A stretch of DNA of 64,000 nt. Source: Candidatus Multivorans sp. (GTDB taxonomy: Bacteria; Acidobacteriota; Thermoanaerobaculia; Multivoradales; Multivoraceae). The translations under genes were made by a program, and so were the position numbers. Positions 1-21,389 of the stretch are shown here, piece by piece. Under the pieces are notes generated by a model that saw only the letters and a list, made by a program, of their open reading frames with translations, had not been told where the DNA came from and did no database searches. The stretch spans positions 4,064,001-4,128,000 of the forward strand of contig OZ245033.1 in assembly GCA_965224025.1 (NCBI GenBank). The letters are read 5' to 3'. Every line of letters begins with the position of its first letter. Positions within the stretch are counted from its first letter, which is position 1.

Positions 1-1072
1 GGCGGTAATGGTCGAAGCCGGCATCTCGGTCCCTCGCGCCGAGACCCTGGAACGAGTCGAGATCTACCGCACGGAACAGCTCGTCGCGGCCTTCGACGAC
101 TTCGAAGGAGAGGCCGGGCCAAGCGGAGTCCGCAACGTCAGCGCCGACGTGCCCACCTCCGGCGTCTCGCCCCAGGACTTCGTCCGCGTGGTGGCGCGCC
201 TCGGCGACGGCCGTGAACTCGAGGATGTCGAACTGCTCCAGAACGCGGAGTTCAGCAGCGAGATCGATGTCCAGCTCGTCCAGTTGCAGGTTCTGATCGT
301 CGACCGCGGCGGCAACCCGGTCGCCGGCCTCCGGCCCGAGGATTTCGAGGTCCGCGAGGACGGCGAGCCCCGCCAGGTGGACAAGCTCTACGTCTCGAAC
401 GACGTGCCGCTCTCCCTGGGTCTGGCCATCGACTCCTCCGGCAGCATGGAGCCCATCTGGCGCCAGACGAACGTGGTCGCCGGGGCGTTCTTCAACGGAG
501 CGCTGACCGGGCGGGACCAGGCGTTCCTGGTCGATTTCGACTCCACGTTGCGCCTCGTGCAACCGCTGACGGGCAGCAAGCCGCTTCTGGCGCGCGGTCT
601 CGATCGCCTCTACCCCCAGGGCAACACCGCTCTCTACGACGCCATTCTGTTCTCGCTGCTTCAGTACGGCGACGCGCCGGGCCGGCGAGCCCTGGTCGTC
701 GTCACCGACGGCTTCGACTCGGACAGCCGCGCCGATCCCACCCGGACGATCGATTTCGGCAAGCGCCTCGGCGTCCCCGTCTATGTCGTCGCCATGCGCT
801 CGCTCGGCTTCGGCCCGACGACGATGGAGGACGCGAACCTGCGCAACAGCATGCGCCTGATCACGGGGGCCACGGGCGGCCGCCTGTTCCAGATCGAGTC
901 GATCGACCAGATGGCCAACGTGTTCGACCACATCGAGGAGGAGCTTCGCCGCCAGTACGTGCTGACCTACTACAGCGAACGCCCAATCGGCAGTGCCGTG
1001 GAACCCGACGTGCGCGTGAAACGGAAGGGGCTCAAGGTGCGGAGCGCCCTGCCGCTCGATGCGATCGAGTAG
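1..1072 (+). CDS. VWA-domain protein (Acidobacterial VWFA-related family), 5'-truncated by the window edge
   Basis: MIDAS DSSGS motif, TALYDAI, VVVTDG and a C-terminal LRRQYVLTY. The reading frame is open from the window start and is homologous to the paralog at 2927-4994. Confidence 0.85.
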   Translation, partial: AVMVEAGISVPRAETLERVEIYRTEQLVAAFDDFEGEAGPSGVRNVSADVPTSGVSPQDFVRVVARLGDGRELEDVELLQNAEFSSEIDVQLVQLQVLIVDRGGNPVAGLRPEDFEVREDGEPRQVDKLYVSNDVPLSLGLAIDSSGSMEPIWRQTNVVAGAFFNGALTGRDQAFLVDFDSTLRLVQPLTGSKPLLARGLDRLYPQGNTALYDAILFSLLQYGDAPGRRALVVVTDGFDSDSRADPTRTIDFGKRLGVPVYVVAMRSLGFGPTTMEDANLRNSMRLITGATGGRLFQIESIDQMANVFDHIEEELRRQYVLTYYSERPIGSAVEPDVRVKRKGLKVRSALPLDAIE

Positions 1073-16442: not shown

Positions 16443-18410
16443 GTGACCCGAAGAATGCTCATCAACGCGCAGAGCTCGACCGAGCTCCGCATCGCCATCG
16501 CCAACGACTCGGTACTCGAAGACCTGAAGGTCGAGATCGCCGAGCGGGGCCTGACCCGCGGCAACATCTACTACGGCAAGATCGCCAACATCGAGCCGAG
16601 CCTGAACGCCGCCTTCATCGACTACGGCGCCCCCAAGCACGGCTTCCTGGCCATCCAGGATGTCGTGCCCGACGCGTACTACCAGGCGGCGTCTAAGTCC
16701 CATCGACCCAAGATCGAGGACGTACTCGTCCGCGGCCGCCCGATCGTGGTTCAGATCACGCGCGAGCCGGAGGGTGCCAAGGGCGCTGCCCTGACCACGA
16801 ACCTGAGTCTGGCGGGGCGCTATCTGGTGCTTTCGCCCTTCGACAAGACCAGTGGCGTTTCCCGAAAGGTCGACACCGAGGAGGTTCGCCTCAAGCTGAA
16901 GGCGATGGCGGAGTCGCTGCCGGTGCCGGACGGCGGCGGCGTGATCGTGCGCACCAACGCCCTGGGCCAGACGAAGACGGCCCTCAGCCGGGACATGAAC
17001 GCACTGCTCCGGCTATGGAAGCGCATCTCCCGGGACGCCCGCGATTCCAAGGGCACGAGGCTCCTCTACAGCGATCAGGACATCGTGCTGCAGGGGCTGC
17101 GCGACTATCTCGACAGCGCGATCGAGGAGGTCTGGGTCGACGAAGACACCGCCCACGGACGCGCCGAGCAGTACATGCGCGCCTTCATGCCGCGCAGCAA
17201 GACGGTGCTGCACCGCTACACGGGCCGCAAGCCGCTGTTCTCGGTCTACGAATTGGAGCCTCAGATCGAGAACATCTTCGAACGCCGGGCGGACCTGCCC
17301 TCGGGCGGCTCGATCGTGATCGATCCGACCGAGGCCCTGACCGCCATCGACGTCAACTCGGGCCGCTCCAAGAAGGCGTCGAGCCAGGAGGAGACGGCGG
17401 CGAACACGAACGTCGAGGCCGCGGCGGAAGTCGGCCGGCAACTCCGCCTGCGGGACATCGGCGGCCTGATCGTGGTCGATTTCATCGACATGCGCAGTCT
17501 GCGCAACCGGCGCAAGGTCGAGAAGGCGATGAAGGACGCGATGAAGGCGGACAAGGCGCGCTCCAGTGTCGGCCGGATCAGCGCCAACGGACTGCTCGAG
17601 ATCAACCGCCAACGGATCCACCAGGCGCTCCAGTTGCGCACCCACGGCGACTGCCCCAACTGCGCCGGCACCGGCCGCGTCGCCAGTCCGGACCTGGTCG
17701 CCCTGCGCCTTCTCCGCAACATCGAGTCCCACGGCGCCGGCGGCTACATGCGGGGCGTGCAGATCGCCCTGCAGCCGGAGCTTGCCAACTTCCTCCAGAA
17801 CCGGCATCGCGAGGCACTCGTCAATCTGGCCAGGGAATTCGATATCGAGATCGAGATCGCAGGGCAGCCGCAAATGGAGGGCCGTGAGCCGGAGATCAGT
17901 TGGATCGCCCGCGACCTGGCCGAAGTGAAGAAGAGGGAGAAGGAAGAGGCCAAGGAGAAGAGGCTGGAGCAGGAAATGCTCGCCACTCCCTCGATCGGCG
18001 ACACCGACGAAGAAGGCGAGGCGGCCGCCGGCGACAGCGCGGCCGAAGGCGCACCGAAGCGCCGCCGGCGCCGGGGCGGACGCAGGCGGCGGTCCGGGAC
18101 CGCGCGCAAGGGGAAGGCGAAGGACGAGGCCCGCAAGAAGGACGGCGCCGCCAAGCAGGCGAAGAAGAGCGAGAAAGCACCCGCCAAGGCGAAGAAGACG
18201 GCGGGGACGGCCGCAATCAAGGTCCCCGGCATCGACACTCCGGCGGCGGACGCAGCGCCCGGCGGAAACGGCAAGGCCGGCGACGCAGCCGCGGCGAGCG
18301 GCAACGGCGCGCCCCGCACGACCAAGCGGCGGCGACGCCGACGCCGGCCCCGCCGGCCCCAGGCCGCCGCGGCAAGCGGTGAGTCACCGCCGGCCGAGAC
18401 GAGTCCCTGA
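16443..18410 (+). CDS. rne: Ribonuclease E/G family (Rne/Rng)
   Basis: S1 domain (GNIYYG, AAFIDYG), IDVNSG, RQLRLRDIGGLIVVDFIDM, Zn-link CPNCAGTG and an Arg/Lys-rich disordered C-terminus. Confidence 0.9.
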   Translation: MTRRMLINAQSSTELRIAIANDSVLEDLKVEIAERGLTRGNIYYGKIANIEPSLNAAFIDYGAPKHGFLAIQDVVPDAYYQAASKSHRPKIEDVLVRGRPIVVQITREPEGAKGAALTTNLSLAGRYLVLSPFDKTSGVSRKVDTEEVRLKLKAMAESLPVPDGGGVIVRTNALGQTKTALSRDMNALLRLWKRISRDARDSKGTRLLYSDQDIVLQGLRDYLDSAIEEVWVDEDTAHGRAEQYMRAFMPRSKTVLHRYTGRKPLFSVYELEPQIENIFERRADLPSGGSIVIDPTEALTAIDVNSGRSKKASSQEETAANTNVEAAAEVGRQLRLRDIGGLIVVDFIDMRSLRNRRKVEKAMKDAMKADKARSSVGRISANGLLEINRQRIHQALQLRTHGDCPNCAGTGRVASPDLVALRLLRNIESHGAGGYMRGVQIALQPELANFLQNRHREALVNLAREFDIEIEIAGQPQMEGREPEISWIARDLAEVKKREKEEAKEKRLEQEMLATPSIGDTDEEGEAAAGDSAAEGAPKRRRRRGGRRRRSGTARKGKAKDEARKKDGAAKQAKKSEKAPAKAKKTAGTAAIKVPGIDTPAADAAPGGNGKAGDAAAASGNGAPRTTKRRRRRRRPRRPQAAAASGESPPAETSP

Positions 18411-18558
18411 CAGGCGCCGGCAGCGCCTCGCACCTGGGAACGCTGGCATCCTGCCCGCACCCGGCGCGAAGCGACGATCCGCGACGCCGGAGATTCCGGC
18501 AACGCCTCGCACCGCTGGCCTACCTACTTAGCTACTAACCCCCTGAAAACACGGAGGT

Positions 18559-18588
18559 TTGACAAGGACCCGGCGAATCCATAACTAT
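18559..18588 (+). promoter_or_regulatory. Sigma70-type promoter
   Basis: TTGACA (18559-18564), a 17-bp spacer, then TAACTA(T). The -35 is perfect and the -10 is imperfect. Confidence 0.55.
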
Positions 18589-18716
18589 CGCGTCGTAGTC
18601 GTTCCGCTCGCGTCGCGAGGCGTTGGCGGCGGTTTCGGGGTCAATCGGGGCGATCCCGCGACTGGGTGGGGTGGGACCCACCACTTTGTGGATGTGCCCG
18701 GAAAGGAGGTGGTCTA

Positions 18717-18761
18717 GTGGAGTACTGCAGATGCGGCTTGATGGAGGTGGCGGCTCCCTAG
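18717..18761 (+). CDS. Putative 14-aa small peptide MEYCRCGLMEVAAP
   Basis: Near-perfect SD GAAAGGAGGT (18701-18710) lies 6 nt before the GTG start; the stop is TAG. Confidence 0.5.
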   Translation: MEYCRCGLMEVAAP

Positions 18762-18831
18762 GTAACCCCTGTTTGGCGTAGGGCATCTCCTTCGGGAAGC
18801 ATTCCCACGCCATCCCATCGGCCAAAAGCCC

Positions 18832-18967
18832 GGGTGGCGCGATCGGCGCCATCCGTGAAACAGTCCATGCGTCCGTCAGCGGACGCTTGGATGACACCAG
18901 GGTGGCGCGATCCGCGCCACCCGTGAACCGATCCGGGCACCCGTCATCGGGTGCACGGCTGGCACGC
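18832..18967 (+). repeat. Tandem 2 x 68-nt repeat, each unit forming two hairpins
   Basis: Units start at 18832 and 18900. Each reads GGGTGGCGC-GATCS-GCGCCAYCC-GTGAA followed by a second hairpin with a TCAK loop. Confidence 0.85.
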
Positions 18968-19006
18968 TTGACCGAGCTGCGGATACCGCGGTCCAAGAGC
19001 GTCGAC

Positions 19007-19047
19007 GGAGCCCCGAGGCGCATCCGCCCTCGGGGCTCCTTTTCTTT
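19007..19047 (+). terminator. Rho-independent terminator
   Basis: 12-bp stem GGAGCCCCGAGG/CCTCGGGGCTCC followed by TTTTCTTT. Confidence 0.85.
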
Positions 19048-19127
19048 CCGGTTCAGCGTCGCCTCTTCCCCTCAGCCCGCGGTTCCGTACAATCGCCCAC
19101 CTCACCTTCCAACGGCGGAGACTGAAC

Positions 19128-21389
19128 ATGGCGGCGATCGGCACCCCAACCAAACTGCTCGAGGGCAAACCCAAGGTCAAGGGCTCGCTGCGCTACTGCG
19201 GCGACCTCGAACGGCCCGGGCTGCTCCATGCCCGTCTGGTCACCAGCCCACACGCGCACGCCGAGGTGCTGAGCATCGATACCGCGGCGGCCGAGGCCCT
19301 GCCCGACGTCGCCGCCGTCATCACGGCAGCAGATCTGCCCGAGCTCCCGGCCAACAGCCGGGCGATGCTCATGCTCGCCCGCAAGCGGGCGATCTTCGTC
19401 GGCCATCCGGTCGCCCTGGTCCTGGCCGAAAGCGAGGCCCGGGGCGCGGATGCAGCAGAAGCGGTCGAGGTCGACTACCGGCCGCTCGACGCCGCGGTCA
19501 CACTGGAACAGGCCGAGATGCCTTCGGCGCCGCCGGTGTGGCCCAACGGCCTGCCCGGCCAGTCCGCGGAGGCGGCGGCGCACGGCGCCGGGGGCGCGGG
19601 CGACGACGGCGGCGAGGGTCCCTCGTCGCCCAACGTGACGAACCGCATGCGCTTCGACCGCGGCGACCTCGCCGCCGGCTTCGCCGCCGCCGACGCCGTG
19701 GTCGAGCGGAGCTTCACCACCGCGGCGGTTCACCAGTCCTACGTCGAACCGCACGTGGCTCTGGTCGATCCGGACCCGATGGGCGCCGGGATGACGATCT
19801 ACAGCTCCACGCAGGCGACGTTCTACATCCGGGACACGGTCGCCTACGTGCTCGGCCTGTCTCACGAGCAGGTGCGCGTCATCGGCACGCCGGTCGGCGG
19901 CGGCTTCGGCGGCAAGTTCCTTCTCTACGAACCGCTCCTGGCCATCGCCGCGACGCAGCTCCAGCGCCCGGTGCGACTGATGATGAGCCGAACCGAGGAG
20001 ATGCTGGCCGCTACACCGGCGCCCTCGACCCGGATCACGATCCGCGCCGGCGCCAGACGGAGCGGCGAGCTGACGGCGCTGGAAGCCGAGTTGGCGATGG
20101 ACTGCGGCTGCTTCCCATCGTCCATGACCGCACTTGCCGGCACCCTGCTCGGCAGTTCCTACCAGACGCCGAATCAGTCCGTCGGCGGCTACGAAGTGGT
20201 CACGAACAAGCCCTCCATCGGCGCCTATCGCGCGCCGCTGGCGCCGCAGGCGGCGTTCGTGGTGGAGACCGTGCTCGATCAACTGGCCCAGGCGCTGGGG
20301 ATCGACCCGCTCGAGATGCGCCTCGTGAACGCCTCGGAGTCCGGCCAGCCGATGGCCTCCGGGATGCCCTGGGCCGGCATGGGCCAGCGCCAGGTGCTGG
20401 CGGCGCTGCAGGCCCACCCCTCGTGGCAGAACCGCGAGCAGGCGCGGGCGGAAGGCCGCGGGGTCGGCATCGCGCTCGGGGCTTGGCCCGGCGGCACGGA
20501 GCCCGCCGCGGCCGCCTGCGCGCTCCAGGGCGACGGTACGCTCAAGGTTCACATCAGTTCGGCCGACATCACCGGCACGAACACGAGTCTGGCCCTGATC
20601 GCGGCCGAGGCCTTCGGCGTCGAACCGGAACGGGTCACGATCGCCACCGGCGATACCTCGAGCGGTCCCTTCGCCGGCTCCTCCGGCGGCAGCAAGATCC
20701 TCTACACCGTCGGACCGCCGGTGATCCAGGCCGCCCGTGAGGCCCGGCAGCAGACCCTGGAACTGGCCGCGGCGACTTTTGAGGCCGCGCCGGAAGACCT
20801 GGAGATCGTGGATGGCGAGGTCCGGGTCAAGGGATCGCCCGACAAGGCCATTCCGCTCAAGAAGATTGCTCAGCGGACCATGCGCTTCGGCAGCCGGCAG
20901 GCACCGGTGTTCGGCCACGGACGCCATGCCCAGACCGGCCAGGCGCCCGGCTTCTGCGCCCAGCTCGCCGAGGTGGCGGTCGACCGGGAAACGGGCCGGG
21001 TGAAGGTCGAGAAAGTGGTCGTCGTCCAGGACTGCGGACGCGCGATCAATCCGCCGGCGGTAGAAGGGCAGATGATGGGCGGCGCCATGCAGGGCATCGG
21101 TTGGGCGCTCTACGAGGAGATGGCCTACAGTGACGATGGCCAACTGCTGACGGCGACCCTGAACGACTACGCCCTGCCTCACTTCGTCCACGGACCGACC
21201 GAGGTCGAGACCGTGCTGGTCGAGGTCCCTTCGGACGCCGGTCCGTTCGGCGCCCGGGGCGTCGGCGAACCGCCGGTCATTCCTACCGCGGCCGCGGTCG
21301 CCAACGCGATCGCCGATGCCTGCGGCGCCCGTCTCACGGAGCTGCCGATGACGCCGCCGCGCGTCCTGGCTGCCATCAACGGAGCCTGA
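19128..21389 (+). CDS. Xanthine dehydrogenase/CoxL-family molybdopterin-binding large subunit
   Basis: VTSPHAHA, VGGGFGGK, AYRAP, AINPPAVEGQMMGG and GARGVGEPP. Confidence 0.9.
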   Translation: MAAIGTPTKLLEGKPKVKGSLRYCGDLERPGLLHARLVTSPHAHAEVLSIDTAAAEALPDVAAVITAADLPELPANSRAMLMLARKRAIFVGHPVALVLAESEARGADAAEAVEVDYRPLDAAVTLEQAEMPSAPPVWPNGLPGQSAEAAAHGAGGAGDDGGEGPSSPNVTNRMRFDRGDLAAGFAAADAVVERSFTTAAVHQSYVEPHVALVDPDPMGAGMTIYSSTQATFYIRDTVAYVLGLSHEQVRVIGTPVGGGFGGKFLLYEPLLAIAATQLQRPVRLMMSRTEEMLAATPAPSTRITIRAGARRSGELTALEAELAMDCGCFPSSMTALAGTLLGSSYQTPNQSVGGYEVVTNKPSIGAYRAPLAPQAAFVVETVLDQLAQALGIDPLEMRLVNASESGQPMASGMPWAGMGQRQVLAALQAHPSWQNREQARAEGRGVGIALGAWPGGTEPAAAACALQGDGTLKVHISSADITGTNTSLALIAAEAFGVEPERVTIATGDTSSGPFAGSSGGSKILYTVGPPVIQAAREARQQTLELAAATFEAAPEDLEIVDGEVRVKGSPDKAIPLKKIAQRTMRFGSRQAPVFGHGRHAQTGQAPGFCAQLAEVAVDRETGRVKVEKVVVVQDCGRAINPPAVEGQMMGGAMQGIGWALYEEMAYSDDGQLLTATLNDYALPHFVHGPTEVETVLVEVPSDAGPFGARGVGEPPVIPTAAAVANAIADACGARLTELPMTPPRVLAAINGA

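Follow-up and report, generated by a model that had tools for sequence, protein, structure and literature searches.

Between rne, the gene for RNase E/G, and a gene for a molybdopterin-binding hydroxylase (Mo-hydroxylase in what follows), a spacer of 717 bp (18411-19127) holds a small transcription unit, whose features are collected in Table 1; positions refer to the window, that is, the whole stretch of 64,000 nucleotides that was analysed. A sequence-only reading of this DNA had proposed a self-contained transcription unit at this place, with a promoter, a strong Shine-Dalgarno (SD) sequence before a short GTG open reading frame, a structured RNA and a terminator. The comparison with related genomes bears out this outline, in the sense that promoter and terminator are conserved and that the SD and the ORF lie where they had been placed and are kept in all 36 same-genus genomes. 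This comparison shows the unit to be an independent gene, with a predicted σ70-like promoter and a predicted intrinsic terminator of its own.

The -35 hexamer is invariant at the 20 genus loci that were aligned (20/20), and the -10 box, formerly given as TAACTA (18582-18587) after a 17-nt spacer, is read here as AACTAT. A promoter of the form TTGACN-16..18-NANNNT was found at 78 of 93 loci, starting 140-159 nt 5′ of AGGAGGTG in 61 loci and about 44 nt 5′ of it in Eisenbacteria, where the 5′ domain of the RNA is absent. As to the terminator, it had been called a strong one, and it does have a perfect 12-bp stem (19007-19018 with 19028-19039) that is followed by TTTTCTTT and is conserved within the genus; terminator-like sites were seen at 56 of 93 loci, their median end being at +174 from AGGAGGTG. 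A simple consensus scan listed neither site, its promoter test needing four of six positions in the -10 box and its terminator search limiting the loop to 8 nt (9 nt here).

Other elements surround the unit. Just 3′ of the terminator there is a genus-conserved block, GGTTCCGTACAATCG (19081-19095, with TACAAT at 19088-19093), which probably serves the Mo-hydroxylase gene as its promoter. In one genome of the same genus (L057), a tandem array of ~19-nt units (GGAGACAGGCAGTCGAGCC...) lies directly 3′ of the terminator, from about +215 after the SD-ORF module described below. On the other side, the DNA from the rne stop codon to the promoter, which is not conserved in relatives, carries an 18-nt direct repeat (18417-18434 and 18496-18513, 94% identical and 79 nt apart). 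The statement that the unit contains no long credible ORF had overlooked a minus-strand frame of 162 aa (18535-19023) that overlaps it. A Pfam search of this frame gave no match, and since open frames over the module range measure 50-723 codons in 31 relatives, it was rejected as a conserved gene.

The length of ~450 nt attributed to the unit is right for this genome, but 136 nt of it are an insertion of two copies of a repeat. This REP/BIME-like element occurs in at least 39 further places in the genome (40 of 309 candidates scored) and is common in same-genus genomes; a single copy is found in one relative (L010) and in one RNA contig (run X5). Since the flanks of the insertion are contiguous in most relatives, the ancestral unit would have measured ~315 nt in the genus, not ~450 nt, and it is because of these 136 nt that the RNA is longer here than the ~280-315 nt of relatives. 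Judging from those flanks, the insertion is not part of the ancestral RNA.

Table 1. Features of the unit and its two flanking genes (window positions)
Feature	Position	Strand	Description
RNase E/G gene (rne)	16443-18410		Pfam RNase_E_G, E 5.6e-93
Promoter	18559-18588	+	-35 TTGACA 18559-18564; -10 AACTAT 18583-18588; 18-nt spacer
Helix P1	18630-18636 with 18658-18664	+	6 of 7 pairs changed on both sides; 94.4% of cells paired
Loop pairing (pseudoknot)	18647-18651 with 18696-18699	+	GGGGC (P1 apical loop) with GCCC; 3 of 6 pairs changed on both sides; 88.9% of cells paired
Hairpin P3	18665-18670 with 18677-18682	+	GGTGGG, loop GTGGGA, CCCACC; 4 of 6 pairs changed on both sides; 97.3% of cells paired
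Extended Shine-Dalgarno	18700-18718	+	GGAAAGGAGGTGGTCTAGT; 19 contiguous predicted pairs with the 3′ end of the genome's own 16S rRNA
Mini-ORF	18717-18761	+	GTG (18717-18719), 13 sense codons (MEYCRCGLMEVAAP), TAG (18759-18761)
Second SD-like run	18743-18752	+	GGAGGTGGCG; 9 nt 5′ of the stop codon; can pair with CGCCATC
Anti-SD-like run	18784-18793	+	CATCTCCTTC; could pair with the first SD
CGCCATC	18808-18814	+	part of the conserved block CCCA(A)CGCCAYC; partner of the second SD-like run
Insertion	18829-18964	+	two tandem copies (18829-18896, 18897-18964) of a 68-nt two-hairpin dispersed repeat (family D1)
3′ hairpin region	18965-19006	+	genus-specific; 5′ of the terminator; query positions 553-690 kept in same-genus genomes
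Intrinsic terminator	19007-19047	+	GGAGCCCCGAGG, 9 nt, CCTCGGGGCTCC, TTTTCTTT (to 19047)
Molybdopterin-binding hydroxylase gene	19128-21389		MoCoBD_1, MoCoBD_2, Ald_Xan_dh_C

Conservation, RNA contigs and structure

The core of the unit (18535-18825 and 18963-19100) is present at 80-94% identity throughout the genus (36/36 genomes), and its 5′ part, used as query, has matches in 85 of 151 same-order genomes (36 of 63 genera), a count that includes one genome flagged as unpublished (G165). Outside the genus, similarity is restricted to about 18660-18762, which comprises the hairpin, the SD and the ORF. Of 401 sampled genomes of the phylum, 27 contain the exact pattern of the two-SD module, each in a single copy, and none contains the reversed control pattern. 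A scan of named genome records with a module pattern yielded at least 56 stretches, three of them looking like chance, and since its gap was N{9,21} and the 14-codon form needs 23, it reaches the shorter variants only and under-samples the family. By their titles, with MAG labels as deposited, the records belong to Thermoanaerobaculia, Vicinamibacteria or Vicinamibacterales, Holophagales and other Acidobacteriota and, beyond this phylum, to Gemmatimonadota, Candidatus Eisenbacteria and Pirellulaceae or Pirellulales (Planctomycetota).

Short contigs from close relatives, in metatranscriptome assemblies of four studies, cover the unit. One of 270 nt (run X7) covers 18593-18857 and begins at the predicted start site, one of 312 nt covers 18607-18809, one of 253 nt joins 18664-18770 to 18987-19018 without the repeat and one of 283 nt carries a single repeat copy. 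They lend support, and only that, to the transcription of the unit: being assembled and coming from relatives, they cannot show strand, ends or level, DNA carry-over is possible, and those parts of the unit that no contig covers prove nothing. Not counted here is a further contig of 369 nt (run X5, depth 1465) that matches just 18688-18723 and probably represents a 16S rRNA 3′ end.

At gathering score, the 64-kb window has no match to any Rfam family; in E-value mode (E up to 10) there are only chance-level matches, the best of which (E 0.12) scores 24.4 bits where the cut-off is 196. ARAGORN found nothing in the unit, which has no tRNA-like domain, and RNase P RNA, two tmRNA genes and 6S RNA are located elsewhere in the genome. 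The earlier statement that the unit lacks the hallmarks of tmRNA and RNase P RNA is thereby supported, and 6S RNA was discarded on the same covariance-model search. The two tmRNA matches are both full-length and lie 3.4 kb apart (G000:C1 1078052-1078399 and 1081483-1081830; 134.2 and 132.3 bits); they may reflect a duplication, perhaps the remnant of an integrated element.

That the RNA is structured, as had been noticed, is supported by covarying helices in a set of 74 aligned sequences; the RNAalifold prediction for this set comprises P1, P3 and a helix in which the second SD-like run pairs with the 3′ CGCCAYC. Over the whole structure, 94.6% of the cells are paired and 13 pairs are changed on both sides, a level that none of 500 shuffles reaches, whereas slid controls are 36-49% paired. 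The comparison shows that the predicted 5′ domain (P1, P3 and the loop pairing) covaries and ends directly 5′ of the 19-nt SD, next to which the loop pairing sits; the latter is weaker in this genus (4 bp plus a bulge) than in other genera (GGGCG/CGCCC). The CCCACC of the upstream GACCCACCAC, for which a pairing with the SD region had been suggested, turns out to be the 3′ arm of the covarying P3. The helix between the second run and the 3′ block is paired in 97.3% of the cells and displays no compensatory change, both strands being nearly invariant.

The extended Shine-Dalgarno sequence and the mini-ORF

The 19 pairs of the SD comprise 15 Watson-Crick and 4 G-U pairs, with 11 as the longest strictly Watson-Crick run, and the duplex extends into the start codon, as G18717 and U18718 of the GTG also pair with the 16S end. 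GGAAAGGAGGT begins at 18700, and the genome's own 16S gene ends ...GGCTGGATCACCTCCTTTCT (read from L068), the end of the Rfam model match being taken as the mature 3′ end. In other genera the commonest form of the SD, AGAAAGGAGGTGGTCCAGTG, can make 17 Watson-Crick and 2 G-U pairs, and most of the 96 unique modules can form 18-19 contiguous pairs with the 16S 3′ end. The predicted accessibility of this first SD does not exceed the average of the RNA (mean unpaired probability 0.32 vs 0.33, pseudoknots ignored), and minimum-energy folds and unpaired probabilities together give no consistent picture of it.

The unique modules were obtained from 137 loci, once three that look like chance or unrelated matches (L109, L118 and L125) had been dropped. 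As the module pattern fixed [AG]TG and GGAGGTGGC, the invariance of these elements across the 96 modules is partly by construction; an independent figure comes from the 88 loci found by DNA-similarity searches or by re-finding the window's own locus, 84 of which match the pattern and start with GTG. The other four have GTG after a 3-nt insertion (CTA; one locus), ATG (two) or TTG (one), and the frame is kept in all of them.

The mini-ORF reads GTG-EYCRCGLMEVAAP-TAG in this genome. Its frame spans 11-15 codons and is open in every module (96/96), ending in TAG in 62, TAA in 30 and TGA in 4. From the start to the second SD-like run, no stop occurs at 722 in-frame codon positions, compared with 163 at 1422 out-of-frame positions, and the variants in length between GTG and the second run are whole codons (offsets 17, 20, 23, 26 and 29 in one frame class, 21 and 24 in the other). 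Within the genus there are synonymous changes (GAG>GAA, TAC>TAT, TGC>TGT). A test of the variable codons for third-position bias gave none.

The second SD-like run, whose presence inside the ORF had also been noted and is confirmed, has a fixed relation to the stop codon: GGAGGUGGC ends 8-9 nt before it in 94 of the 96 modules, in both frames, so that it is translated as E-V-A in 85 and as G-G-G in 11 (Eisenbacteria and Pirellulaceae). From this run to the last sense codon there are 5-6 nt, the same spacing as between the first SD and its GUG. On the 3′ side, a CUCC-type run follows the stop within 42 nt in 66 of the 96 modules, and in L013 and L120 minimum-energy folds pair the anti-SD-like run with the first SD. 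In 79 of 96 modules, vs 592 of 1920 shuffles, a small local hairpin has the stop codon in its loop, a feature that is absent from the window's own genus.

Does this frame matter at all? Both SD runs are nearly invariant in nucleotides and the peptide is not, the second run is pairable with the 3′ block in nearly every sequence, and translation of rreB, the experimentally studied RNA to which the unit is compared below, is described as weak in the accessible text on it (PMC5711450). All this would suit a purely noncoding regulatory RNA in which the SD-like runs serve as decoys, either for the 16S tail or for a protein that binds SD sequences, such as CsrA, or simply as helix strands, the frame being incidental. 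Such an RNA, however, would explain neither the total lack of in-frame stops nor the changes in length by whole codons, nor start codons changed to ATG or TTG without loss of the frame, nor a stop codon at a fixed distance in two different frames, which makes this explanation unlikely.

If the frame is kept, the question arises whether the peptide is the effector and the RNA merely its mRNA. A micropeptide gene, with a 14-aa product marked by the CxC or by a G-L-x-E-V-A motif, would agree with the conserved open frame, with the fair conservation of G at codon 7 (40/48) and L at codon 8 (30/48) in the 14-codon class, and with the RreB and RreR peptides, which are conserved within their clades according to the accessible text of PMC5711450. 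Against it, the second Cys of the CxC changes to S or N within the genus and the peptide is not conserved across families; E-V-A is what the invariant SD-like run encodes, and gives way to G-G-G in the groups named above; the last two codons covary with a downstream stem in most members; and about 200 nt of conserved non-coding structure would be left unexplained. This possibility is therefore judged quite improbable. The CxC micropeptide proposed by the sequence-only reading does not stand, and its idea of a novel dual-function RNA with such a peptide is only partly right. Its remark that the peptide is not hydrophobic like those of type I toxins is valid for MEYCRCGLMEVAAP, MIEGKHGSVEVASS and others, and a type I toxin mRNA was rejected for this reason. 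What the comparison of the modules shows, as a predicted effect of selection, is that the frame of the mini-ORF is kept open, not the sequence of its peptide.

Gene neighbours and interpretation

Within the genus, the Mo-hydroxylase gene is downstream of the unit at all 37 loci and rne upstream at 36, the remaining one (L025) having too little upstream DNA. Outside it, the Mo-hydroxylase gene adjoins the unit at none of 47 loci and no rne is within reach at 42 of them; rne adjoins at the other five, and the orientation of the neighbours varies. A Pfam tally of neighbours gave no enriched family, the commonest upstream one being RNase_E_G (5 of 90) and all others reaching at most 4 on either side; these tallies are rough, since a crude longest-ORF picker was used that got the frame of the window's downstream gene wrong. 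In the five loci with an adjoining rne (L061, L063, L070, L072 and L090, from other genera of the order), the unit lies ~380 nt upstream of rne and divergent from it, and in this genus the two share a strand, with the unit downstream of rne, so that the link to RNase E recurs in two arrangements.

A cis-acting element, belonging either to the Mo-hydroxylase gene (a leader, attenuator or riboswitch) or to rne (its 3′ UTR), would account for the constant neighbours within the genus and for the divergent rne of those five loci, but it is very improbable given the conserved promoter and strong terminator of the unit, the separate TACAAT block beyond the latter, the absence of the Mo-hydroxylase gene from all loci elsewhere and of rne from most of them, and the varying orientation of the neighbours.

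We consider it probable that the unit, a gene in its own right, encodes a structured small mRNA of the rre type, in which the engagement of the ribosome would matter and not the peptide. The long SD-anti-SD duplex would capture the 30S subunit very tightly, and initiation would be slow because that duplex covers the start codon. Once elongating, the ribosome would separate the second SD-like run from its partner, the 3′ CGCCAYC, and, on arriving at the stop codon, its 16S tail may pair again, this time with the second run, as the spacing suggests. Tight capture, a slow start and re-pairing at the stop would together make the engagement of RNA and ribosome, rather than the peptide, the relevant product, and by analogy with rreB the turnover of the RNA probably depends on translation. 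Compared with the RNAs already described, the novelty lies in the phyla, in the greater size of the RNA and in a second SD before the stop codon.

A broader proposal can be advanced tentatively, although we regard it as doubtful: these RNAs and the α-proteobacterial rre RNAs might form one ancient and widespread class of "ribosome-clamp" mini-mRNAs. In such a class, the 16S tail would be held in a full-length duplex at initiation and handed at termination to the second SD, one ORF-length downstream, so that one ribosome would stay on the RNA, either cycling or parked. In this way free 30S subunits, or the status of the 16S 3′ end, might be sensed or buffered by the RNA, whose own decay, perhaps through the neighbouring RNase E, would be the read-out.

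Genes so small escape annotation, and no library of RNA families includes this unit. Acidobacteriota and, to judge by record titles, three other phyla share its conserved layout, selection acts on the frame and not on the peptide, and the second SD keeps a fixed distance to the stop codon, which together suggest a general ribosome-centred function and not the oddity of one clade. Furthermore, the family provides a large natural alignment for the effects of very long SD-anti-SD duplexes on initiation and termination.

Comparison with known systems

An SD-like run close to a stop codon has a precedent in the frameshift site of prfB (encoding RF2), where such a run is located in frame just before the stop and the 16S tail pairs with it while the ribosome is at the stop codon. 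The mini-ORF shares with it the position of the run inside the frame, a few nucleotides before the stop. Unlike prfB, it has neither a slippery sequence nor a downstream frame, its stop is mostly UAG or UAA and not UGA, and the distance from run to stop is 8-9 nt, compared with a much shorter one in prfB.

The very short frame within a structured RNA, whose pairing may be remodelled by translation, also recalls leader peptides of the trpL type and dual-function sRNAs such as SgrS and RNAIII. The unit differs from these in having no conserved regulated gene downstream and no runs of regulatory codons, and no target-pairing seed was identified in it. With tmRNA, an abundant structured RNA that engages the ribosome and contains a short internal frame, the resemblance is limited by the tRNA-like domain, which the unit lacks, and by the SD and start codon, which it has.

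The closest likeness is to the rre ("ribosome-regulated expression") RNAs, on which there is a single experimental study, that of rreB, which leaves their function open (Hahn et al. 2016, RNA Biol; PMC5711450). According to the accessible text of that study, rreB of Bradyrhizobiaceae is an mRNA of 165 nt with a 14-codon frame and UAA or UAG stops, in which 17 nt, extending to the G of the GTG start, are complementary to the 16S 3′ end; it binds 30S subunits strongly, is weakly translated and is turned over in a manner that depends on the start codon. Its counterpart in Rhodobacterales, rreR, has 18 codons, and the analogues reported in the same text belong to four α-proteobacterial orders only (PMC5711450). 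A literature search for rre-type RNAs outside the α-proteobacteria, whose scope ended at subscription-only papers, found no description of one. The unit is consequently not the undescribed system that it had been taken for, since the same architecture is already published for rreB and rreR (PMC5711450, in the text accessible).

The unit has what defines membership of the rre group: at least 16 nt of 16S complementarity upstream of a small ORF (19 pairs here, G-U included) that extends to the GTG's first base, an open small frame ending mostly in TAG or TAA, and a small stand-alone transcript that has a promoter and a terminator to itself, with predicted ends, in a genomic context that is not conserved. 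Set against the accessible description of rreB and rreR (PMC5711450), both are stand-alone small transcripts with promoter and terminator; the complementarity runs into the GTG in both, over 16-17 nt there and 18-19 nt here; the frames have 14-18 codons there and 11-15 here, with UAA or UAG stops; and in both the context is not conserved beyond the family and the peptide only within clades. This likeness is one of layout and does not show common descent; what the sequences have in common is imposed by the 16S tail. The differences, taken from the same accessible description (PMC5711450), begin with the hosts, α-proteobacteria in one case and Acidobacteriota plus, by record titles, Gemmatimonadota, Eisenbacteria and Planctomycetota in the other. 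The RNA is larger here, ~280-315 nt vs the 165 nt of rreB, it has a covarying 5′ domain with the loop pairing before the SD, and a second, invariant SD-like run stands 8-9 nt before its stop codon, a comparison made with the text description of rreB.
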